A stretch of 64,000 nucleotides of DNA from Scenedesmus sp. PABB004. Taxonomy: Eukaryota. Both the position numbers and the translations under genes were made by a program. This document shows positions 10,976 to 59,686 of the stretch, in pieces (position 1 is the stretch's first letter; each line of letters starts with the position of its first letter). The stretch covers positions 62,001 through 126,000 of the forward strand of contig JABVCE010000043.1 in assembly GCA_014905635.1 (NCBI GenBank), written 5' to 3'. The notes beneath the pieces were generated by a model that saw nothing but the letters and a program-made list of their open reading frames with translations, was not told where the DNA came from and made no database searches.

Positions 10976-11325
10976 CGGCGCGCTGCAGGAGCGGTGCGGC
11001 GGGCAGGGAGCAGCATGGGCGAGCGGGTCATTGATCCGGGGCGGGTGTGCAGCTGCTGCCGCCGCCACCCGGGTGGCGCAGCCGCCACGCCGGCGGCGCC
11101 CGCGCTGCGGAGCGCGGCTGCGGGGTCGTGTGGATCGCAGTCGTCAGCCCTGGCGGCCCTGCGTCAAGGGCCGGGCGCCCTGAGCAAGGGCTGCCAACTT
11201 GGTGTCAAACAGTCATAAGTCAGCTGAGGGGCCCAGGGAGGCGTGGGGCCGGCATGGGTGTCAGGGCTAGTGCGAGGCGGCGGGGGGGCCAAGCTGCACG
11301 GGCGCCACCGAGCTGGGGCTGCGTG

Positions 11326-14243: not shown

Positions 14244-16840
14244 GGTTCCTAAACCCCAGTTCTGCGCCAGCCACTGGTGCAGCTGGTGGCCGAGCTGGTC
14301 CCAGAGCAGCTGCAGCGCCGCCGCCGCGCCCGCCGGCACGGGCACGGGCAGCCCGCCGCTCGCCGCCTCGGCAAACGCCGCGCCGTAGTCCGCCGCGGCG
14401 GCAGTGAAGATGCCCAGTACGCGGCCCGCGACGCTGGCAAAGTCCGCCGCGCGCTGCTGCTGCTGCTGCTGCGGCTCGCCCGGCTCGCCGGTCGGGGGCG
14501 CGCACGAGAGCGTGCTGCGCACCAGTTCCGCGGCGTGCTGCACCGCCACAAGCGTGGCGGCCAGCCGCGCCAGCCGGCCGTCGGCCGCGCCGGCGTCCGC
14601 TGCAGCGGCTGCAGCGGGGCCGGCATCGCCGGCGTCCGGCTGCGCCAGCGCCGCTGCCGCGTGCGAGAGGTGCTCGGCGCTCCTGGGGCCGAGGCGCGCA
14701 GCGGCGCGCACGGGCGAGCGGTGAGCGCCGGCGCTTGCGGTGCAGCGGGCAGCCGCCCACCCTCTCCCGCGCCCGGCCGCGCTCACCACAGGTGCTCCAG
14801 CAGGTCCTGCTCAGCCAGCGAGCCGTCGGCGCAGGCGCAGCGCCCCTCCTCCTCCAGCGGCCGCCGCCACCAGCCCGCCGCGGCAGGCGGTGGCAGCCCC
14901 AGCAGGCCCTGGCCGCCGGGCGCCGCCTGCTGGCGCCGCACCAGCACCTGGAGCACGTGGTGCGGCGCGACGCAGTGCGCCCACCACGCCAGCGCCGACG
15001 GCAGCGCCTCGCCGCACACGGCGCAGACGTGGCGGTGCCGCGACTGGCGCCGCTGCGTCGTCGGCGCCGCCACCGCCAGCGCCGCCGCCGCCGCCGCCGC
15101 CGCCTCCGGGGTCATCAGTCTGCCCGCGGCGTCCAGCCAGTCCTCCGGCGTGTGCTGCGGCTGCGTCTGGCTGTGCCGGGAGACCTGTCGCGGCTTTGGC
15201 GAGGGCACCGCCGCGGGCTGCTGCGCCGCCGGCGGCTGCGGCGGCTCCTGCCCCTGCCGCAGCCGCAGCTGCGCTGCCGCCGGCGCCTGCTCCGGCTGCG
15301 GCGAGGGCGCGCCGCGCGCGGCCGCGCCCGCCCCCTGCTCGCCGCCGGCGCCGCCGGCGCCGCCGCCCGGAGCCGGCACCGCCGCTCCGGGGTGCGTGCC
15401 CGCCCCCTGCTCGCCGGCGCCGCCGCCGCCCGGAGCCGGCGCGGCCGCTCCGAGTCCAGGGCGCGCGCCCGCCGCGAGCAGCCCCGCCACGTCGAGGCGC
15501 ACCAGATACTGGGTGCTGCACGTCGTGCTGCGCTCCCAGCGCAGGTGCGCGCTGTCGGTGACGAGCTTGACGACGCGCGACACGCGACTCACCTCCCGTC
15601 CGGGCTGCTGGCCCGCGCCGGGCTTGTGGCCCGCCCAGCGGGTGTAAGCCTGGATGGCCGCGTTGCCTGCCGGGGCGGCGGCGCGCGAGGCGGGCGGGCG
15701 CGCATGCGGGCGGTGGCGCGGGCGGGCGGGCGCGCCGCGCGTGCCGGCCGCCACGCGGCCCGCGCCCGCGCAGCGGGCCAGCGCAGCGCGCGCGGGCCGC
15801 GGGGCGCCGCACCTGCGCAGCCGCCGTCGAGGGCGTATGCGGCCGCGTGCGGGACGGCCGGCGCGTCGGGCGGCGCGCCCGGCGCGAACGCCGCCGGGTT
15901 GGCGTGCTCCACCAGCTTCTCGGCCAGGCCGCGCATCAGCACGTGCTTCTGCTCGTCCTCGTGCCATCGGCGGGCAGACACAATGCCCAGCAGCTGCCGC
16001 GCGGACACCCCTGCCAACAGCCGCGCCAGCGGCTGCTGCGCCTGCTGCGCCTGCTGCGCCTGCTGCGCCTGCTGCGCCTGCTGCGCCTGCTGCGCCTGCT
16101 GCGCCTGCTGCGCCTGCTGCGCCTGCTGCGCCTGCTGCGCCTGCTGCGCCTGCTGCGCCTGCTGCGCCTGCTGCGCCTGCTGCGCCTGCTGCGCCTGCTG
16201 CGCCTGCTGCGCCTGCTGCGCCTGCTGCGCCGGCTGCTGCTGCGCCGGCTGCTGCACGGGCAGCTGCTTCTGCTGCGGCTCCTGCTGTGCCGGCTGCTGA
16301 TTCCGCTGCTCGCGCCGCTGCTTCTTGTTGGGCGGCCCCTCGGCGCTCGCCGGCGTCTCCTCTGCATCGCCAAGCAGCACGCGCAGCGTGCGCTGCAGAT
16401 TGCGCACCTGCGGCCGCGTCGTAGCAGCGGTGAGGCGTGCCGCGGTGCGGCGCGCGCCGAGCCCCCCGCGTCGGCAGAGCCCGCACCTGATCCAGCGCGC
16501 GCTGCCGGACCGCACCGACGGCGGCCGCCTGGCGCCCCTGCTGCAGCGCGAGCGCGAGCCGCTCCAGTGCCGCCGCTGCCGCGCGCGGCTCGTCTGCGCC
16601 GTCCGCCGCCGGCGGTTGGCGCTGCTCCTGCTGCTGCTCCTCCTGCTGCTGCTGCTGCTCCTGCTGCTGCTGCTGCCCCTGCTGCTGCTGCTGCGAGGCG
16701 GCGGCCGCGCGCAGCAGCTCCAGCTCCACGCCCAGCGACAGCCGGCTGCGCAGCGCGTCGGCCGCCTCTGCCGCGAGCGCCGCGTGCAGCACGGCCGACG
16801 CCAGCGCGCCCGCGCCGCCCTCTGCGGCGGCTGCCGCCAT
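13573..16840 (-). CDS. Hypothetical low-complexity protein with (QQA)n tract and a putative C2H2-like zinc finger
   Basis: ATG 16840. Spliceable exons containing poly-Q, a PNKKQRR NLS-like motif, a QQA repeat, HVCAVCGEALPSALAWWAHCVAPHH and poly-P. Stop inferred from ORF ending 13573; 3' exon structure uncertain. Confidence 0.55.
16033..16230 (-). repeat. Coding 9-bp tandem repeat encoding (QQA) x about 22
   Basis: Perfect CTGCTGCGC array on the + strand, about 198 bp. Confidence 0.95.
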
Positions 16841-17121
16841 CGCGTGCGCGGCCGGCGCTGCGATCGGGCCGCGGGAGTGCTGCGCGGCGCGCGCGGCGGC
16901 TGGGGCGGCTGGAGCGGCGCGCCGTCGCGTCGTGTCAGTAGCAAGCCCGCCCTTTGTAGAGCTGCGCCCGCGTCGCGCCGCCCACCACACCACCAGGCCC
17001 GCACGTTGCGCGCCCACGCTCGCGCCAGCCGCTCCTGCTCGCGCGAGAGGCCATCGCCGCGCCGCATCCGTGCGCCCCCGCGCGACCCCGCCACGCCCGG
17101 GCCCAGGGCCCAGCGCAGGCG
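16565..17121 (+). repeat. Long direct repeat A, copy 1 (about 555 bp)
   Basis: Near-identical to 19211-19792, including the unique non-GC segment GTGTCAGTAGCAAGCCCGCCCTTTGTAGAGCTG. Confidence 0.93.
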
Positions 17122-17243: not shown

Positions 17244-17823
17244 ATGGCCGCCCCCGGCGCCGACCTGGCGGCGCACTGCCGCTTCTTCGACCACCTGGCG
17301 GACCTGGTGGACCCGCGGTTTTACGCGCCGGAGGAGCGGGAGCACGTCAACCCCAAGTACATGAAGCGGGCCGAGGCCGCCGCGACCAAGCGCGCGTTCA
17401 AGGCGGCGTACAAGACCAACAAGCGCGCGCGCCTCGACCCCGACGCCGCCAAGACCACCACGCAGCTGCAGGCGCAGCAGGCGGCCGAGGCGACGGCGAC
17501 GCGCGGCGGCGGCGGCGGCGAGCTCGGGCGGCTGCACCTCGCGGCGGGCGCGCAGCCCAGCCGGGAGGAGCTGCTGGCGCGCCTGCACGCCAAGATGGAG
17601 GTGCGCCGCGCCGCGCGCACGCGGCGCAGCCGGGCCCGCGGCCGGGGGAAGCCGCCCACGCCGCTGCATGCCGGCCCGCGCGCAGGCGGCGCGGCAGGCG
17701 CGGCACGCCAAGGAGGGCGGCGAGGCCGGCGCGGCGCAGCCCAAGAGCCCCGCCGACAGCGCCAAGCAGTGGCGCAAGGAGCAGCTGGGCAAGAAGCTCA
17801 AGGACAAGCAGCAGCAGGCGGCG

Positions 17824-17864
<41 letters not shown>

Positions 17865-19174
17865 CGCGGCGCAGAAGCGGTGCGGCAGGGCGCGGGCGTG
17901 CGCGGGGCGACGGCGTGCGCGGGGCTCCGGCGTGTGCGGGTCGCCGGCGCGCGCGGGCCCGCTCACTGCTCGCGTGTGCGTGCGTGCACCGCCGTGCGAG
18001 CCGCAGGAAGCCGGGCACGGCGGAGCAGCCCGCGGCCAAGAAGGCCAAGGCCGGGCCCGCGCCGGCGCCGCCGCCGCCGGCGGCGGGCGGCGGCCTGGCG
18101 TTCAGCAAGATTGTGCTCGGCACAGGTGGGTGGGGCGCGCGGGGGGGGGGGGGGGCAGGGGGCGGTGCCTGCCGTGCGTGTCGCCGTCGCTGGCGGCGCT
18201 CCGCGTGTGCGTTCGTGTGTGTCCGTGCGCGTGTGCGTGTGCGTGCGCCGCGGCCGCCCCGGGATGCACACGTTATGCGAACTGACGCTCACACCGTGGA
18301 GCCAACTTTTCCGCTTATTGTCTGAGGGCTGCTGCGCCGCGTGTGTGGTCGTTGCGCGTGCGCGTGCGGCGCGTGCCGCGCGCGGGCCCGGGGGATGCAC
18401 AAACACATTTTGCCGAACTGACGCGTCTGGAGACACCACGTGCCTGACGAGCCCGCACCAGCTGCGCTTGCGCGCGCGCGCGTGCCTGCGTGCCTGCGTG
18501 CGCGTCCGTGATGCGTCCTCTCGGAGGCGGCGGGCGCCGCCGGGCCTGTCGCCGAGTGCTGCCCACTGCCGCGCCCGCCGCCCAGCAGGCCGGCCCGGCG
18601 CCAAGCCCGGCGCCAAGAAGAAGCCCACCAAGGAGGCGCTGCTGCGGGCGGCCGAGGACAAGGCGGCGCGCCTGGCCGACGCGGCGGCGCGGCAGGACGA
18701 GGCGGCGATCGCGGCCGAGGCGTGGCGCGCCGCGCTGAGCCGCGCGGCGGGCGAGCGCGTGCTGGACGACCCCAAGCTGCTGCGGCGCAGCATGAAGCGC
18801 GAGGAGGGCGAGCGCGCGCGCAAGACCAAGCGCTGGCAGGAGCGCACAGCGGCGCAGGCGGAGCAGCAGCGCGCGCGCCAGGACAAGTGCGTGGCGGGGC
18901 GCGCAGCGCGGGGCGCGCCGCGGGGCGCCGCCGCGAGTGCTTGCGCCGCGCGCGCTCGCGCCGCGCGCTGGCGCAGCGCGCTCACGCCGACCCGCCTCCT
19001 TCCCTCCCCGCCCGCACGCGCAGGCGCAAGGACAACCTGGCAGCGCGCGCGCAGACCAAGCTGGACAACAAGAAGGCGAAGCGCGACAAGAAGCTGCTGC
19101 GCGCGGGCTTCGAGGGCCGCAAGGCCGCGCCGATCAACGTCAAGCCCGGCGGTGCCAAGGGCGGCGGCAAGTGA
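17244..19174 (+). CDS. SURF6: Surfeit locus protein 6 / RRP14 nucleolar protein, multi-exon
   Basis: RRP14 N-terminal motif HCRFFDHLADLVDPRFY and KRARLDPD. SURF6 motif W..ALSRAAGERVLDDPKLLRRSMKRE..KTKRWQER and RAGFEG. TGA 19172-19174. Alternative ATG at 17235. Confidence 0.92.
18249..18336 (+). ncRNA. Intronic C/D-box snoRNA A (predicted guide for LSU rRNA 2'-O-methylation at the site equivalent to plant 25S U48)
   Basis: Terminal stem CGCGGCCGCCC/GGGCTGCTGCG, C-like GGGATGC 18261, D' CTGA 18282, C'-like GTGGAG, D CTGA 18322. The guide TTTTCCGCTTATTG can pair over 14 bp (two G-U) with conserved LSU CAAUAAGCGGAGGA. Confidence 0.8.
18382..18456 (+). ncRNA. Intronic C/D-box snoRNA B (predicted LSU rRNA guide)
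   Basis: Terminal stem GCGGGCCCG/CGAGCCCGC, C-like GGGATGC 18392, D' CTGA 18418, C'-like TGGAGA, D CTGA 18444. The guide CATTTTGCCGA is complementary to conserved LSU UCGGCAAAAU(G). Confidence 0.75.
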
Positions 19175-19210: not shown

Positions 19211-19792
19211 CAGCGCCGCCGCCGCCGCGCGCGGCTCGTCTGCGCCGTCCGCCGCCGGCGGTTGGCGCTGCTCCTGCTGCTGCTCCTCCTGCTGCTGCTG
19301 CTCCTCCTGCTGCTGCTGCTGCTGCTGCTCCTGCTGCTGCTGCTGCCCCTGCTGCTGCTGCTGCGAGGCGGCGGCCGCGCGCAGCAGCTCCAGCTCCACG
19401 CCCAGCGACAGCTGGCTGCGCAGCGCGTCGGCCGCCTCTGCCGCGAGCGCCGCGTGCAGCACGGCCGACGCCAGCGCGCCCGCGCCGCCCTCTGCGGCGG
19501 CTGCCGCCATCGCGTGCGCGGCCGGCGCTGCGATCGGGCCGCGGGAGTGCTGCGCGGCGCGCGCGGCGGCTGGGGCGGCTGGAGCGGCGCGCCGTCGCGT
19601 CGTGTCAGTAGCAAGCCCGCCCTTTGTAGAGCTGCGCCCGCGTCGCGCCGCCCACCACACCACCAGGCCCGCACGCCGTCCGCCCACGCTCGCGCCAGCC
19701 GCTCCTGCTCGCGCGAGAGGCCATCGCGCCGCACCCGTGCGCCCCTGCGGGACCCCGCCGCGCCCGAGCCCCGGGCCGGCCCACCGCAGGCG
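19211..19792 (+). repeat. Long direct repeat A, copy 2 (duplicated 5' exon fragment plus upstream region of the QQA gene)
   Basis: Near-identical to 16565-17121 with a longer CAG tract. Retains the minus-strand ATG at 19510. Confidence 0.93.
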
Positions 19793-25730: not shown

Positions 25731-25947
25731 GGTGATGACCGCGGGCGCCCGCAGCAACATGGAAAGGGCGCAGCAGCCTGCACAGCATGTCACTGCGGGC
25801 GGCTGAGGTGAGCGCGCGCGCGGGCGCGACGCGTGGTGCCCGCTTGCTCGTCGGCGGGCTCGGAGCAGCCGTGCCGCGGGTGGCGGCGGCGGTGGCGGCG
25901 GAGGTTGTACGTGAGGCCTGACGCGCTGGGGCCTGGCAATGTGAGCC
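25731..25947 (+). repeat. Direct repeat B, copy 1 (about 210 bp)
   Basis: Aligns with 28950-29160 (shared ACAGCATGTCACTGCGGGCGGCTGAGGTGAG and GGAGGTTGTACGTG..AGGCCTGACGCGCTGGG). Confidence 0.9.
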
Positions 25948-28949: not shown

Positions 28950-29160
28950 GGTGATGACCGCGGCGCCAACATGGACAGGGCGCAGCAGACTGGACAGCAT
29001 GTCACTGCGGGCGGCTGAGGTGAGCGCGCGTGGGCGCCCGCTTGCCGCCCGCTTGCTCGCCGCGGGCTCGGAGCAGCCGCGCCGCGGGTGGCGGCGGCGG
29101 TGGCGGCGGAGGTTGTACGTGTGAGGCCTGACGCGCTGGGCCTGCTGGCAACATGGGGCC
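28950..29160 (+). repeat. Direct repeat B, copy 2 (about 210 bp)
   Basis: Diverged copy of 25731-25947 with small indels. Confidence 0.9.
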
Positions 29161-30670: not shown

Positions 30671-32121
30671 GCCGGGCGGGGCATCGGTCACCCAGCGCGC
30701 TGGCAAACGTCAGTCGTGAGGAGGAGGAGCGTGGACCTGCCGCTGCGCAGCTGCTCTGCTCCGCGCAATCCCAGCGGCGCTGGGCGCGGCGCGGCTAGCT
30801 TATTTGTGTGCTGGGCGAAACGGTGCGCCAACACCAAACACCAAAGTCAGGGCGCACGACTGCGGCGGGTGATTCATATGTGTCACAACGGCGTCGGCGC
30901 TGCCGTCAAAGCGTCTGCAGGGCGGCAGGCGCCGCGCTTTTGGTGTCGGGTGTGCCGGCGGAAAACGGTGCGCCAGGCGGCGCGCGCGCAGGCTCCTTCT
31001 TTTGTCCCGCACGTGCGCGGGACTTAATCTCCACGGCATGGTGTTGGTTGGTTTGTTGTTTGGAGGCAGGGGGGACGGGGCGGGGGGGGGGGGGGCAAAC
31101 GACTGACCCCGACGAACCGCACTGCTGCGCCGCCGCTCCGTTGCGACTACGCGCATGGGGCCGCACCACCACCATTGCATTGTTCCCTGAGCCCCACGAC
31201 CTGGGGCAGCCAACGCCGCAGCAGCTGCTGCGTGGCACCCCCACGCTCCCCCGTGCAGCCGGGGAGCCCGGGCTGCGCCTGCACTGCACTCGCAACGCAC
31301 TGCAACTGGCACTCGGAGCCTCGGCCGCAACCGTCATCACCCGTGGGGTGAGTGAGCGGCCCGTGTGTGCTGGAGCACGTGGGTGCCAGCGTTCAGACAA
31401 CTGTGTGTGAGGTTCGGACCGAGGTTTGGACCCAGTGCACAGAGTTGGTCTCGTGCCGCATTCAACGCGCGGCTGATCATTCATGAACGTCGCCGCAGCC
31501 TTGTTCAAACGCACGCGCCACGGGCGCGTGCCCCCGGCCGGCGCCGCCAAGCAGAGCCCGGGTGCCTGCTGCGCTTACCAAGGGCAGCGTCACGCGAGCC
31601 GGGCCCTGTGGAGGCTCCCCTCTACAGCCTGCTCTCCCCTGAACTTGCACACAACACCTGCTCTGTCGCACTCGTACTAATACGCAACACTGAACAGAGC
31701 TCAAGAGTGTGGTGTGCACCGCTGTGGCGGTCGGTCTCGTGCCGAGGCAGTCGTTAATGGCCTTTCTCTGTTGCTGCTCTGTTGCCGGGGTGAACGGCCG
31801 GTGCACAGCCGGCTGCGCCGGCGCAGCTGCAGCCGGGTGAACGCGGGCTGGTGAACGTGGCCGGGTGAGCGCGGCTGCCTCCAACGCATGCAAACAGTGC
31901 GGCGTCGCCGGGTGGGCGGGGCGCTCCGTGAGCTTGCTGCTGGTGCTGCTGCGGCCCGGGCCGGCGTCGGGCCGCCCAGGAGCTGCCGGCGGCACTGCCG
32001 GCGGCACTGCCGGCGGCACTGCCGGCGCTGCCACGCGTGGCTGTTACCATGTTCGAGGTCCAGCCCCCCCCCCCCCCCCACTCCCCCCCCCCGCACACAC
32101 TGTCCGGATCTGAGCCCGCGG

Positions 32122-33241
32122 TCAGTGCAGGGCAAGGCGCCAGAGGTCGCCGCGCCGCGCGTTGTCGGCGCCGAGGCCGCCGTGCACCACCAGGTCGCCG
32201 CGCAGCGCGGCGCAGCCAAACCAGCCGCGCGGGCCCGGGCCGCTTCCGCCGGCTGCCTCGACCGCGTGCCACGCGGGCGCGTCGCTCGTGGCGTCTAGAC
32301 AGGCCAGCATCGAGCAGAAGTCGCCCGCGCCCGCGTGGCCCTTGTCGGAGGGCGCGCATTCCCCCGCGAAGGTGATCACGTGACCCGCGTGCCCGCAGGC
32401 CGCCGCGCAGCCGCCCGCGCAGCCGCCCGCGCCGCCGTGCGCGGCCGCGCCAAACACGCTGCGCGGCAGCGGCATCGCCGGCGCGGCGCGGGCGCCGCCT
32501 GGCGCGGCGCAGCAGCTCCACGACTCGCTGTCGAGGTCCAACACGTGAACGTCGCCCAGCTCGGCGCCGTTGAACCCCCCATCAGCAGCAGCCGTGTGTC
32601 GCCCGCGGCCGCGAGCACGGCGCCGCCGCGCGGGCCCGCGGCTGGGCAGGCCGGGAGCTGCCGCCACGCGTCGGCGGCGGGGTCGTACGCCCACAGGTCG
32701 GCCAGCCGGCCGTCCGCGCCGCAGCCGCCAAAGACGTACAGCTGCCCGCGGGCAACCGCGGACGCGTGGAAGCTGCGCGGCGCCGGGGACGGGCCCGCGG
32801 GGCGCCGCGACGACCATGTCAGGCTGCCGAGGTCCAGCACGTGCAGGTCGCCGCGCGCGCCCTCGCCCAGCTCCACCCCTGGGGCGCGCGCGCGCGCGCG
32901 GGCGAGTGGGCGGGGTGGGTGGCGGCGCGGCTGCCGCGCGCGTCGGCGCAGAGCTGCGCCGCCGCCTCACCGGTGCGGCCGCCGAAGAGGACCAGCTGGT
33001 CGCCGATGACCGCCGCCGTCGCGGCGATGCGGCCGCCGGGCGCCTCGCCGCGCGTGCGCAGCCTGGACCAGTCACCGCGCTCGACGCTGTAGGCATACAC
33101 ATCGTCGGTCAACGGGATGCGCGGCTCCAGCTCGCCACAGAGCACGTAGAGGGTGTCGCCACCCGCCGACGCAGCGAGGCAGTGGCTCGACCGCGGCCCG
33201 GGGCTCTCGCCGGCCTGCGGCAGCTCCTGCCAGGTCGCCAT
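32122..33241 (-). CDS. Kelch-repeat beta-propeller protein (nitrile-specifier protein-like)
   Basis: PGPRSSH, GELEPRIP, LVLFGGRTG, PAPRSFH, LYVFGGCG, GGFNGAELGDVH, PRSVFG and PGPRGWF Kelch motifs. One intron. Confidence 0.88.
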
Positions 33242-33676
33242 TGATGGTTCTGGTGCAGCTCCTGGCGCCTGAGTGGAGGCGCAGCTGCGCGGTGTGTGCG
33301 TTTTGCAGCCGCTGCACGATGTCGCAGCCGCCGCTGTCCGCTGCCGGCCGGCGCCCCGACAGCACTGGCGCCTGCGGAGCTGCTCGAGCGGCGCGCGTGT
33401 GCGCCGCGGCGATGAATGCGAGCGGCAGCATCGCTAGTTCGCCGCCGCGGTGCAGCGTGGCGCGGCTGAAGCGCGGCGGCGCTCCAGCCGTCGTGCGCCG
33501 GCGGCGCATGCCTCTGCGCGGCCGCAGCGGGTCAAACCGCGTTACCGAGCAGCCCAGCGCCAGCTGGCGATCTCGGCCAGCGCTGCTCCGCCGCCCCGCC
33601 GCCGTGCAGCGCTCCCGCTCGCAGCGCTCCCGCCCGCGTCGCCGTTCCCCGCGCCCGCCCCCTGCACGCCCCTCTC

Positions 33677-35235
33677 CTAGCTCGGCACCTGGCCCGCCAT
33701 GTAAGTGCTGAACGCGGCTTGCTGCTTCTCCTTCAGCCCCGCAAACGCGCCCTCCACCACCCCCGGCGGCAGGCGCGGGCCCATGCTGTGCAGCAGCCCC
33801 GCCATGCGCAGGCCCACGCCGCCGTCGACGAGGTCGGTCCCCCGCCCCAGCACGCGCACAAACGCGGACACCAGCGCCGGCAGGTGCGCGCTGTTGGGGC
33901 CCAGCACCCGCGCGTCCTGGGCCTGCGCGCGCGGCGGCCGCGGCGGGCGCCGCAGGTGGGCGGGCGGCCGCGGCGCGGCGCGGCGCGGCGCCGCGCTGCT
34001 GCTGCTGCTGCCGCGGGTACCACCCGCGTGCCGCCGCCCGTGGGGCCCCGCCCGCGCGCCCCCGCGCCCTCTGTGCCCCGCCGCCGCACCTCGAGGCGGC
34101 GCACGAGGAACTCGTGCACCTTTGCCGCCTCCACCGCGTCCGACGTGAGCGGCAGCCCGCCGACGAGCAGCTCCGCCATGGCGGCGCCGTCGAGCACGTC
34201 CCCGTGGTGCTCCAGCAGCGCGGCGAGCGCGGCGAGCGCGTTGTCGGTCGCCATCTCGTGCTCGTCGCTCTTGGCGTCCTGGCGCGGCGGGCGGGGAGGG
34301 CGCGGGGAGGGAGGGCGCGCGGCGGGCGCGGCGGGTGAGCGCGGCGCGGCGGGTGCGCACGCGGCTGCGGCACGCACACAGGCACGCAGGCACGCGCAGC
34401 TGGTGCGGGCTCGTCAGGCACGTGGTGTCTCCAGACGCGTCAGTTCGGCAAAATGTGTTTGTGCATCCCCCGGGCCCGCGCGCGGCACGCGCCGCACGCG
34501 CACGCGCAACGACCACACGCGCGGCGCAGCAGCCCTCAGACAATAAGCGGAAAAGTTGGCTCCACGGTGTGAGCGTCAGTTCGCATAACGTGTGCATCCC
34601 GGGGCGGCCGCGGCGCACGCGCACGCGCACGCACACTCGCAGAGACACACACACGGATCCACGCGCGCGCGCGCGAGGGGCCTCACCGGGCGCGTGATGG
34701 CGGCGCGGACGGCCGCGAGCGCGGCGGGGGCGCTCGGCTTGAACAGCTCCGGCGCCGCCGCCGCGCAGACGCCGACGCCGTAGAGCGCGCACTGCCGCAG
34801 GTCGGCGTGGTCCGACCCCGCCGCGTCCAGCAGCACCGGCATCAGCTGCGCGGCGCGCAGTCGGCGCGGGCGGGCGCGGGCGGGCGCGGGCGGGCGCGGT
34901 CGCCGCGGTCAGCGCGCACGAGCCTGCACGCGCCCGCTCTCTCCCTCCCTCCCTGCCTCCCCCCCCCAATGCTCCCCCATGCTCCCCCCGCTCCCCCATG
35001 CTGCCCCCCCCCCCCTGCGCGCCGCGCCTGGGCGAGGTACTTGGCCCGCCCCGCGGCGCTGTGCTCGAGCATGTCGTCGATGACGCACAGCGCGATGCGC
35101 CGCTCCTCGTCGGGGCGCGCCTTGTCCAGCAGCGGCGCGATCGCGGGCATGAGCCCCTCCACGTACGGCAGCGCCGCGTCGCCAAAGGCCTTCAGGAACG
35201 ACCCCAGCGCGGTGCCGACCTGGGGCGCGTGTGCG

Positions 35236-35273
<38 letters not shown>

Positions 35274-35863
35274 GGGTGGGGGGGTGCGCTGCCGCGTGCG
35301 CGCGCAGGCTTGGGGCCACCTCAAGGGCCTGCGCCCCGTTGCCTCAACCCCGCCCCTAAACCCCTAAACCCCTACACCCCTGCACCCCCCCCCTCTACCT
35401 GGTCGTACAGCTCCTCCTCCGCCTCGTTCTCCGCCGCGAGCGCCTCCTCCTCCTCGTCGTCAAAGTCCTCCGCAGCCTTGCGCTGCGCGGGGGTGCGGGT
35501 GTGTGTGTGTGGGGGGGGGGGCACCGCGTGCGGGGCAGGTCGGCGGCGTGCAGGCGGCCGCGAGGCCGACACAGCGGGGCGCGCGCGCGGCCCACGCGCG
35601 CCGCCGCGGCGCACCTTGCTGCGCTGGCTGCGGCGCGCCTCTGCGGCGGAGAGGATCGACCCAAACGCGCCAAACGCGGCCTCCACCTGGGGCGCCGCGA
35701 GCGCGCCGGGGTCGGCGAGGCCCACGACCTCGCCGAGGCTGTCCAGCATCGCGGCGGTGATGTCGGGCTCGGGCTCCTTCTTGAGCGCCGCGATGAGGGG
35801 GTCCCACATGAACCCCACCAGGCGCGACGTAAACTCCTGCGCAGCGGGCGCGCGTGTGTGAGT

Positions 35864-35894
<31 letters not shown>

Positions 35895-38800
35895 GGCTGC
35901 GCCTGCGCCTGCGCCCGCGCCCGCGCCCGCGCCGCGTCGCGCCGCCCGCGCCCGCGCCCGCGCCCGCGCGTGCGCCTCCGCCAGCGCCGCGCCGCGCCGC
36001 GCACCTTGCCCGCGCCCGGGACGCCCTTGTCGGCCGCGTCCGCCGCCGCGCGCACGAGGTGGGGCAGCGCCGCCGCGGCGGCGCGGCGCACGTCCTCATG
36101 GAAGTAGAAGCGCAGCAGCGGGACCATGAGCTCGCCCACGGGCTGCACGTACGGGAAGAAGCCGTCGCGGAGCTCGTCGACGTAGCAGACGATCATGTTG
36201 CACGCCGTCGCCTTCTCCTCGAGGCTGCTCGTGCGGATCGCGAGCACCTGGCGGCGGACCGGTGGTGGCGGCGGCGGGCGGCGGGGGGCGGGCGTGGGTG
36301 AGGGCGCGTGGGTGAGCGTGGGCGTGTGGGTTTGTGGGCGAGCGCGTGTGGAGCAGGGGCGAGGGCGGCGGCGGGCGGGCCGCAGCCGCCGCCGGCGGAG
36401 CCCTAAGCCCTCAAACCCCTAAGCCCTAACCCCCCCCCCCCCCGCGCGCGCGCCGCGCCGCGCCTTGTCGCCGAGCTGGATGTGCTCCACGTCGTCGTCG
36501 TCGTCGAGGTCGTCGCCCCCCGGGTCGGCCACCTTCATCTCGGGCTCGAGCGCCGCGGCCGCGAGCAGCGGCGGCATCACGACCGGCAGGTAGGGCAGGA
36601 ACTCGGGGCCCAGCGCCTTGCACAGCCGCGCGCCCGCCTGCGCGTGCGGGGCGCGGCGGCGCGCGGCGCGGGGCGCGGCGCTGGGCGCACGCGGGAGGAG
36701 GGCGGCGTGCGGGAGGGCGGCGCCGACGCGCGCGGGCGGCGCCGAGGCGCGCGGGCGGCGCTGCGGCGCTGCGGGGGCGTGCGCTGCGCGCGCCTGGAGC
36801 ATGTAGGAGTGGGTCGGGTCGTCCGGCTCGAGCGGCCCCGCTGCCAGGCCGGCCATGAGCTGCATGACGCCCGCCGCGTCGTGCCGGAAGCGCTCCCGCC
36901 CGACCGCCATGCCCACGAGCGACACGCACTCCAGCGCCTTGGCGCGCAGAAGCCTGCGCCGCGGCGGCGGGCCGCGCACGGCGGACGCTCGCGCGCCGCG
37001 CGCGCCGCCGCCCGTGGCCTGCGCCGCGCCCGTTTGCCCCCGCGCGCCGCGCGTCCGCGCCCGCGCCTGTGCTCCTTGGTCGAGGCGTTGGTGAGTATGG
37101 TGCTCAGCAGGGGCATGACGGCGTCGTAGTAGCGCACAAACTGCTCCTGGCTGCAGTCCGCGACGCTCGCGAGCGCGGTGAGCGCGCCCTCCTGCACGAT
37201 CTTCTTGCCCTGCTGCAGCAGGGCCAGCAGCTTGGCGATGAGCGCGTCGAGGTGGGGGCCCATCGTCTCCGCCTCGCAGCCCTCGCTGAAGTTGACCACC
37301 GCCGCCGCCGCGTGCGCCTGCGCGCGCGGGGGCGGGCGCGCGCGCGAGAGAGAGGGGGAGCGAGGGAGGGGGAGTGAGTGAGAGGGGCGAGTTTGGAGGG
37401 AGGGCACGCGAGGAGGCGGCGCGGCTGTGCTGCGCGTGCTGCGCGTGCTGCGCGCGCCTGCACGCGGGGGTTGGCAAAGTCGTCCATCGCCGCCAGCAGC
37501 GCCGGCAGCACCGCGGCACCGCAGCGCGTCTGCAGCTCGGGGCCCAGGTCGGTGCACATCTGCCCCAGCGCCTGGCACGCCGCCCAGCGGACCTGCGCGC
37601 GCGGGCGTCGGGCGGTGAGCGCGCAGCGGCGGCGGCGGCGGCTGCGGCGCGCGGCTGCGGGTGCGGCGGGGCCGCGCCTTGGCGTGGCTGTCGCGCAGGC
37701 CGGTGAGGCACATGGCCACCAGGGCCTCGACCTGCTCCTCCATCAGCTTCTGGCACCCCTCCGCGATCTGGGCCAGGCAGATGAGCGCGGCGTGGCGCTT
37801 GCGCCAGTCGGCGTCGCCCAGCCACACCGGCAGCAGCGCGCCTGCGCGGCGGCGGCGGCGGCGGCGGCGGCGGCTGAGCACGCGGCGCGGGCGGCGCAGC
37901 GCGGCGGCGGCGGCGGCCGCGTGCGTGCGGCGCGGCGCGGCGCGCGCACCCGCCGCGGGGACGAGGGCCTTGCCGCCGAGCGCGATGGCCATGCGGTCCA
38001 GGAACTCCTGCCCGCCGTCAAACAGCTCCCCCGCGCCGTCCTCCTCGTGCGCGTCGGTGTCGCCCTGCGGCGGCGCGGCGAGGGGAGGGGAGGCGCCGCG
38101 GCTCGACACCCGCCGCCGCCGCCGCCGCCACGCCCCTGCCGCCGCCGCGCCCCTGCCGCTGCCGCCGTGCCCCGCCGCGCGCCTCCCCTGCGCGCGTCCC
38201 CTGCGCGCGTCCCCGGCGCGCGTCCCCGGCGCGCTGCCCTGCGCGCGCGCGGCCGCACCCTGTGCCAGTCTGGCTCGTCCTCTACGTCGAGCAGGAAGTG
38301 CATGAGCGCGTCAAACAGCGCGCCCACAAAGTTGGGCAGGCGGCGCACCATGCCGGGCGCCTTGTCGCGCGCCTCCGCGAGCGTGACGAGGCACTCGGCC
38401 GCGAGGCTGCGCGTCGGCGGCTCGAGCGGCGCCGCGGTCGCGATCTGCAGCAGCGCGCCGACCGCCTCGGAGAGGTGCTTGCGCAGGAACTTGGGGTGGC
38501 TCTCCGCGACCTCGATCAGCAGCTCCAGCACGTCCTGCGCCGCCGCCTCGTCGCCGCCGGAGAGGCAGCGCCCCAGCGCGGCGAGCATGGGCACGAGCTG
38601 CGGCTGGAAGCCCTCGCGCTCGCGCGGCTCGTCGAGCGCGTTGATGAAGTTGCAGCACGCGTGCAGCGCCGCGACCTGCGCCCCGGCAGCGGAGACGCGC
38701 GGGAGAAGGAGGGGCGCGGCGCGGGTCGGGCGCGCGGTCAACGCGCGGCTGGGCGGCCGGGCGCCGCCGCAGCGCGCGCGCGCGGCGCGCCGCCGCGGGG

Positions 38801-39697: not shown

Positions 39698-40552
39698 GGC
39701 GGCGTCCCACCGGCAGATCGGGGCCTCCCGGGCGCGCAGGGCGCGGCGCGGGCCGGCGCGGGGCGGGGGCGGGCGGCGTGGTGGGCGGGGTGGTGGGCGC
39801 GGTGCTGCTGCGGCGTGCGTGCCGCCCGACGCCGGCGGCTGGCAGCTCCGAGAGATGGGTGGGAGCGCGGGGGCGCGCGGGAGGAGGGCGCGCGGAGCAG
39901 GGGGCGCGGCTTTGGCACAAGAGTTTGGCACATTCATTGTGCCCACCACGAAGGACTGCGCAGGCCCGCTCGAGTGGCCCTCCAAGCGGGCCACGCCGGC
40001 GTGGACCGCGCTGATCGAGCCCCCCGGCGCTGCCGCCGCAGTCTGCGCTTTCGCCGCCGGCGCCCGCGGCGAAGCGCCCCCTGCAGGCTGGTGGCGGCGT
40101 CCTGGGTGACGTGCCGGTGTGCGCGGCGGCCGGCGCGCTGCTGCCGATCAGCGCCGCGCGCACCGCAGCGCCGCGCCGCGGTGCGCGCGGCCGCCGCCGG
40201 CGGCGCCCGGCCGCGCGCTGCCCGCTCTCTCGCTCGCGTTGCGCGCGCGCGCGGCGCGCCTGCAGCTGCGGCGTCAGCAGCGCAGGTCACGGTCCGCCAC
40301 CCCACCCGCCGCCGCCGGCGCCGCCGCCGCGGGGCGCTTTTGCCGGCGCGCGCCGCTCCGCAGCGCCGCTTGTGGCCGCGCCCCTCACGTCCACGCGCGC
40401 ACTCCCGTGCTCCCAGGCGCCGCTCCCACGCGCCTCACCGCGCCAGCGGGCCCGCACGCTCGCCGGCGGGCGCTTAGCAGAGCATCCATATTTCATCACT
40501 GCTGCTGCGCCCAGCCCGCGGCCCGCCCGAGTTTGCCTCCACGCGCGGCAGC

Positions 40553-47691: not shown

Positions 47692-59686
<11,995 letters not shown>

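Follow-up and report, generated by a model that had tools for sequence, protein, structure and literature searches.

We found that an intron of a SURF6/Rrp14 gene and an intron of an importin-5/Kap121-like gene share a 227-nt block that reads as two box C/D snoRNAs joined by a spacer, and we consider it probable, at roughly three chances in four, that this block is a functional snoRNA pair that was recently copied at the DNA level. The window, by which we mean the whole 64,000-nt stretch of DNA that was analysed, holds the two copies of this cassette on opposite strands in the following introns.

18241..18467, plus strand: copy A of the cassette, a core identical to that of copy B apart from one mismatch at 18342
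34394..34620, minus strand: copy B of the cassette, the reverse complement of copy A (position x of copy A is position 52861-x of copy B)
18126..18588, plus strand: host intron A, in the SURF6/Rrp14 gene (gene at about 17280-19174, plus strand), GT..AG, phase 1 on both sides
34279..34686, minus strand: host intron B, near the 3' end of the importin-5/Kap121-like gene, GT..AG, phase 0 on both sides

Direct reading of both stretches, a MAFFT alignment and a global intron-to-intron alignment agreed in showing that 18241-18467 (+) equals the reverse complement of 34620-34394 (-) apart from a single position, which is T at 18342 in copy A and C at 34519 in copy B and which lies inside the inter-unit spacer. 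The first mismatching bases beyond the core are 18240 and 18468. The original prediction had described a segment of about 230 bp at 18241-18470 that recurs reverse-complemented at 34391-34620 with one substitution, in the spacer; its coordinates proved accurate to about 3 nt and the substitution was found where it had been placed. A repeat finder returned one long inverted pair with arms at 18207-18484 and 34377-34654 (278 nt, 94% complementary), and self-BLAST of the window located each unit at two places only within the 64 kb. The flanks of the core are composed of alternating G/Y low-complexity sequence and are 70-75% alike between the copies. Because self-BLAST matched these flanks to many sites across the window, this likeness is no evidence for longer homology. 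The core occupies 227 of the 463 bases of intron A and 227 of the 408 bases of intron B, and the ends of the two introns are unrelated.

The window has a G+C content of about 78% throughout, with GT-AG introns, and the two units of the cassette are its most AT-rich intronic islands. Other short low-GC islands were noted at 11176-11247, 31392-31801, 39906-39969 and elsewhere, none of which matched Rfam at gathering thresholds. Further repeats in the window include a direct repeat of about 180 nt with 91% identity (25755-25935 and 28967-29144, 3.2 kb apart) and a (CA)n microsatellite of about 350 nt (49123-49482) that coincides with the strongest GC-skew excursion of the window.

The identity of both host genes was examined by Pfam and PDB searches. 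Exons flanking intron A matched the Pfam domains RRP14 (PF15459, E 6.7e-11) and SURF6 (PF04935, E 1.3e-19). The importin-5/Kap121-like gene lies on the minus strand, starts or ends at about 33.7 kb and extends past 38.3 kb, and its exons upstream of intron B resemble solved structures of importin-5 and Kap121. Those at 36577-38310 (-) matched importin-5 residues 455-575 (E 1.8e-24) and those at 35372-36418 (-) matched residues 665-755 (E 3.7e-21) in the PDB search, the two matches being colinear, and Pfam matches to Importin_rep_6 and HEAT_EZ were obtained for the exons of this gene as well. The two exons directly adjoining intron B gave only sub-threshold HEAT and importin-4 matches in the Pfam and PDB searches, including a weak colinear match of the exon adjoining copy B to importin-4 residues 899-928 (E 0.49). 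The upstream exon stops at a codon boundary and the downstream exon opens in frame. Intron B thus appears to belong to the importin gene, an assignment that rests on strand, phase and colinearity with the upstream exons. The domain matches and strands bore out the expectation that the hosts are SURF6 and importin-5 and that both copies of the cassette are sense to them.

These gene structures also bear on whether one of the two copies might be an assembly artefact. The stretch may come from a metagenome-derived assembly, and the public runs that match it are freshwater metagenomes containing partial shares of it, which would be compatible with such an error. However, the exons on either side of each copy are in phase and belong to one gene (SURF6 around copy A, the importin around copy B), so that a mis-join at the repeat is unlikely. 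The copies differ, moreover, at one base and in both flanks, and cassette-bearing contigs occur in runs of two studies. We therefore regard an artefact as scarcely plausible and treat both copies as real.

The surroundings of the host genes showed features of their own. A 570-nt direct repeat with 93% identity (16565-17110 and 19211-19777, self-BLAST) brackets the SURF6 gene, which places the SURF6 locus in a recently rearranged stretch. Read on the minus strand, this repeat contains an apparent 5' exon of a neighbouring gene, with a Met-started open frame that encodes poly-Ala followed by poly-Gln, and its second copy extends in antisense orientation into the 3' end of SURF6. A Kelch-repeat gene (32122-33433, minus strand; Pfam) follows immediately downstream of the importin gene.

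Within the cassette, the predicted units, their terminal stems and their boxes are arranged as follows.

18251..18334, plus strand: unit 1, 84 nt, candidate snoR16-like box C/D snoRNA
18251-18259 and 18326-18334, plus strand: terminal stem of unit 1, 4+4 bp (MFE fold)
18261-18267, 18282-18285, 18296-18302 and 18322-18325, plus strand: boxes C (GGGAUGC), D' (CUGA), C' (GUGGAGC) and D (CUGA) of unit 1
18335..18381, plus strand: spacer between the units, 47 nt, G/C-rich and of low complexity, which holds the only difference between copies A and B
18382..18456, plus strand: unit 2, 75 nt, box C/D snoRNA-like, no Rfam family
18382-18387 and 18451-18456, plus strand: terminal stem of unit 2 (6 bp), with 2 further bp beside the kink-turn (MFE fold)
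18392-18398, 18418-18421, 18427-18433 and 18444-18447, plus strand: boxes C (GGGAUGC), D' (CUGA), C' (CUGGAGA) and D (CUGA) of unit 2
34527..34610, minus strand: unit 1 of copy B, identical to unit 1 of copy A
34405..34479, minus strand: unit 2 of copy B, identical to unit 2 of copy A

In both units a box D with the sequence CUGA adjoins the terminal stem near the 3' end and a second CUGA forms an internal box D'. The C' boxes are degenerate, as is often the case in C/D snoRNAs, yet common to the two units. Each unit had been predicted to carry a terminal stem and C, D', C' and D boxes, and this description stood for the stems and for boxes D, D' and C' but not for box C, which is the variant GGGAUGC instead of the canonical RUGAUGA. 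Five of its seven positions match the consensus; position 2 is G where the consensus has U, and position 7 is C where it has A. A U at the former position is usually conserved and is kept by almost all eukaryotes. The C/D kink-turn is defined by G.A, A.G, U.U and G-C contacts between GAUG and CUGA, and both units have the GAUG core placed for these contacts with CUGA across a 3-nt bulge (CGG or GGG). Folding of the two units was no better than that of shuffled sequence (z -0.13 and -0.75); a lack of excess fold stability is usual for C/D snoRNAs. The spacer ahead of box D is just 10 nt in unit 2. A scan of the window for the combination of GAUG, CUGA and a stem returned no further C/D candidate except a probable coding false positive at 52130-52231. 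The two predicted units are likely to function as snoRNAs.

A C/D antisense element comprises 10-21 nt ending next to box D or D', with the target nucleotide opposite position 5. We compared the four potential guides of the cassette with target rRNAs taken from foreign eukaryotic rDNA that contaminates prokaryote assemblies; these were fetched with the complement of the ITS4 primer and placed with Rfam, and the set was extended with the LSU 3' third from one fetched rDNA record. Significance was assessed by comparing the longest Watson-Crick run against these foreign rRNAs with that of 2000 shuffles. An antisense element of this kind was found against the foreign rRNAs in two of the four guides.

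18307..18320, plus strand: unit 1 D guide, positions 2-15 upstream of box D
18406..18416, plus strand: unit 2 D' guide, positions 2-12 upstream of box D'

The unit 1 D guide forms 14 bp (11 Watson-Crick, 2 G-U and 1 Watson-Crick) with LSU rRNA 44-57, and the predicted target is the U opposite guide position 5 (18317). The target segment occurs in all eukaryotic rDNAs retrieved. The Watson-Crick run of 11 was reached by 37 of 2000 shuffles; there is some circularity in this test, since the primer used to fetch the rDNA overlaps the target site. The unit 2 D' guide forms 11 contiguous Watson-Crick pairs with the conserved LSU segment TCGGCAAAATG (about LSU 1900-1910 in the rDNA record L036), with the second G as the predicted target at position 5; here the run of 11 was reached by 26 of 2000 shuffles. 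Shuffle support for these two guides is only moderately strong. Against the same foreign rRNAs, no convincing target was found for the unit 1 D' guide (best Watson-Crick run 6, reached by 1999 of 2000 shuffles) or for the unit 2 D guide (best run 8, reached by 907 of 2000). The latter showed an 11-bp duplex with a variable region of one rDNA, but 2 nt of this duplex are contributed by the C' box.

We also asked whether the units belong to known snoRNA families. The whole window gave no match to Rfam at gathering thresholds. When the units were searched under relaxed settings (E up to 10), unit 1 aligned with snoR16 (RF00296) over model positions 1-86 of 86 with 18.1 bits (E 3.9), below threshold since the gathering score is 45, and unit 2 searched alone gave no match. 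Unit 1 thus resembles plant snoR16 over the length of the model and shares with its consensus the D-guide core, UCCGCUUAUU followed by CUGA, as well as the predicted target U near the LSU 5' end. It differs from plant snoR16 in its score, in its C box (GGGAUGC, not UGAUGA), in an unrelated D' guide and in a much higher GC content. In Arabidopsis 25S rRNA, Um48 is a 2'-O-methylation (Nm) site mapped by RiboMeth-seq and assigned to SnoR16 (PMC8053127, Table 1). U47 of the fetched rDNAs would correspond to Arabidopsis U48, by position rather than by alignment. The 25S table of the same paper lists no site between U1892 and U2114, which suggests that the unit 2 site is not an Arabidopsis site if the numbering is similar, again by numbering rather than by alignment. 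Text searches found the guide cores neither among the Ostreococcus snoRNA sequences (supplement of PMC7671301) nor in the Arabidopsis RiboMeth-seq supplement (PMC8053127), and in the searched part of the plant snoRNA family archives (PMC5122169), snoR16 sequences excluded, they gave one unrelated match.

Three public DNA runs from two studies contain part of the stretch (shares 0.33, 0.20 and 0.04), and two of these runs are labelled freshwater metagenome; the run search listed no RNA run for the stretch. Comparison of their contigs with positions 17700-19000 of the window showed that the cassette exists outside the source assembly. A 286-nt contig of run X1 spans 18225-18468 with 6 differences, including G>C at 18368 in the spacer, and a 234-nt contig of run X2 spans 18225-18394 with 9 nt missing at 18360, also in the spacer. 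In run X3, which belongs to the other study, three short contigs align with unit 1; they show T>A at 18274, which is position 8 of the D' guide, and small indels at 18303/18304, where positions 18-19 of the unit 1 D guide lie outside the duplex. The region of unit 1 that forms the D-guide duplex was therefore invariant in the environmental contigs, whereas the spacer and non-pairing positions varied. Cassette-bearing contigs of runs X1-X3 reached a word depth of 2-7 over 18225-18468. No contig of these runs covered the SURF6 exons that adjoin the cassette and no record crossed the entire stretch, although such gaps carry no weight in this comparison; the depth over the cassette may hint at extra copies or at conservation in relatives. 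The poly-G run of intron A (18135-18165) and its GYGY tract (18200-18250) draw very deep, short matches from many unrelated metagenome contigs, which reflect low complexity and not homology. A scan of metagenome contigs with two motifs common to both units yielded 11 loci, none of them cassette-like or with a second box set, and on inspection these look like chance matches in bacterial-type sequence.

The variation in these contigs helps to weigh the possibility that the units are derived from snoRNAs but inert, in which case the G for U at position 2 of the C box would block a stable RNP and one or both copies would be pseudo-snoRNAs carried passively. The occurrence of GGGAUGC in both units would fit this, as would the snoR16 score below the Rfam threshold and the two guides that lack a target in the foreign rRNAs. 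On the other hand, all four kink-turn-critical nucleotides of the C box (GAUG), both D boxes and the terminal stems are intact, and each unit keeps a guide of 11-14 bp. Three variant contigs of another study keep the unit 1 D-guide duplex intact and vary at positions outside it. In addition, the same variant C box is found in two independent units and so looks like a lineage habit, not decay. We consider an inert pair unlikely and favour a pair of functional snoRNAs.

We next considered the origin of the second copy. The 47-nt spacer varies elsewhere, and its identity between the copies is more than selection on the RNAs can account for; the two copies therefore go back to a recent common ancestor, through either duplication or gene conversion. 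This supports the original prediction of a recent transfer or gene conversion of the whole cluster, which is the simplest reading of the spacer identity. As judged from the sequences, a recent transfer and a conversion between older paralogues would both fit, with either host as donor. The junctions of both copies lack poly(A) and terminal inverted repeats and show nothing like a target-site duplication other than low-complexity GYGY, and the shared block ends well short of the splice sites. These properties favour a DNA-level event over retroposition, a MITE or an introner. While speculative, the alternating purine-pyrimidine tracts in the flanks are possible recombination substrates.

Two specific routes were tried and rejected. 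Mammalian snoRNA retroposons (snoRTs) have reportedly been described, and an origin of this type was discarded since an A-rich 3' tail is lacking and the flanks consist only of GYGY low complexity. An introner or MITE was discarded since the splice sites are not reached, the intron ends are unrelated, terminal inverted repeats and target-site duplications are lacking and the window holds two copies.

More generally, the block could be a mobile or repeated element of another kind (a MITE, a SINE, an introner fragment or a retroposed copy) that merely resembles C/D snoRNAs. Such an element would account for a sharply bounded repeat in two introns and for short metagenome contigs that end at the cassette edge, as repeats often do in assemblies. 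It agrees poorly with the junctions described above, with a block that, unlike introners, falls short of the splice sites, and with the finding of just two copies in 64 kb and of nothing cassette-like among the 11 metagenome-scan matches. It would also leave the guide complementarity and the snoR16 alignment unexplained. We hold this explanation to be very unlikely.

We propose that the block comprises two clustered box C/D snoRNA genes encoded within an intron. If expressed, each unit would be freed from the host pre-mRNA or the spliced intron by exonucleases that trim as far as the C/D kink-turn RNP, composed of Snu13, Nop56, Nop58 and fibrillarin, and the released units would guide 2'-O-methylation of LSU rRNA. 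The site predicted for unit 1, as for plant snoR16, is the U in CAAU*AAGCGG close to the LSU 5' end, and that predicted for unit 2 is the second G of UCGG*CAAAAUG, in domain IV. In this model, the second copy would have arisen in a recent DNA-level event, either a duplicative transfer of about 230-300 bp or an ectopic gene conversion between inverted paralogues 16 kb apart, and it may have persisted because the intron that received it, in the sense orientation, belongs to a further broadly expressed gene with a link to ribosome production.

This arrangement has clear parallels. In plants and Chlamydomonas, most snoRNAs are described as members of multi-copy families, often in intronic or polycistronic clusters, made by extensive duplication (PMC7671301, citing Chen et al. 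2008). The cassette resembles the clusters so described in plants and Chlamydomonas reinhardtii, with several C/D snoRNAs in one intron, sense to the host and multi-copy by duplication. Plant snoR16 is described in a snoR16-U43 cluster (PMC5122169); in contrast, the partner in the cassette, unit 2, is an unrelated unit. Within genomes, snoRNAs have been described as still moving between introns of broadly expressed genes under a 'constrained drift' model, and a recent primate migration into introns of two other genes is reported (PMC3511168). The cassette is similar to the mobility described there in that a snoRNA appears in the intron of a new, broadly expressed host gene. It differs from this mobility and from snoRTs in that two snoRNAs and their spacer moved together, without poly(A) or a clear target-site duplication, which points to a DNA-level copy or conversion. 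Intronic snoRNA clusters and host switching are well documented, and the cassette is an ordinary, clean instance of this known process. It is set apart in small ways by its variant C box, by the joint transfer of two snoRNA genes and the spacer between them, and by the presence of a guide resembling snoR16 in a very GC-rich eukaryote. Current understanding is unchanged by it.

If expressed, the locus adds two box C/D guides: unit 1 is the likely counterpart of snoR16, and unit 2 predicts an LSU Gm site for which no match was found in a published map. The donor and the recipient of a host switch are rarely both readable, and this pair could help to separate DNA-level copying from retroposition. 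The GGGAUGC C box common to both units is of minor interest for the recognition of kink-turns in genomes of extreme GC content. A bolder reading, which we regard as rather doubtful, is that the cassette is a self-contained snoRNA module, bounded by alternating (GY)n tracts, that is copied or converted as DNA, with no retroposition, from one intron to another among genes of ribosome production, maybe with more than two copies per genome and with a lineage-specific GGGAUGC C box that tolerates G for U. Were this the case, the cassette would be a live example of a 'constrained drift' host switch with donor and recipient both intact; should the organism be a green alga, snoR16 would also, together with its Um site, be pushed back well beyond flowering plants.
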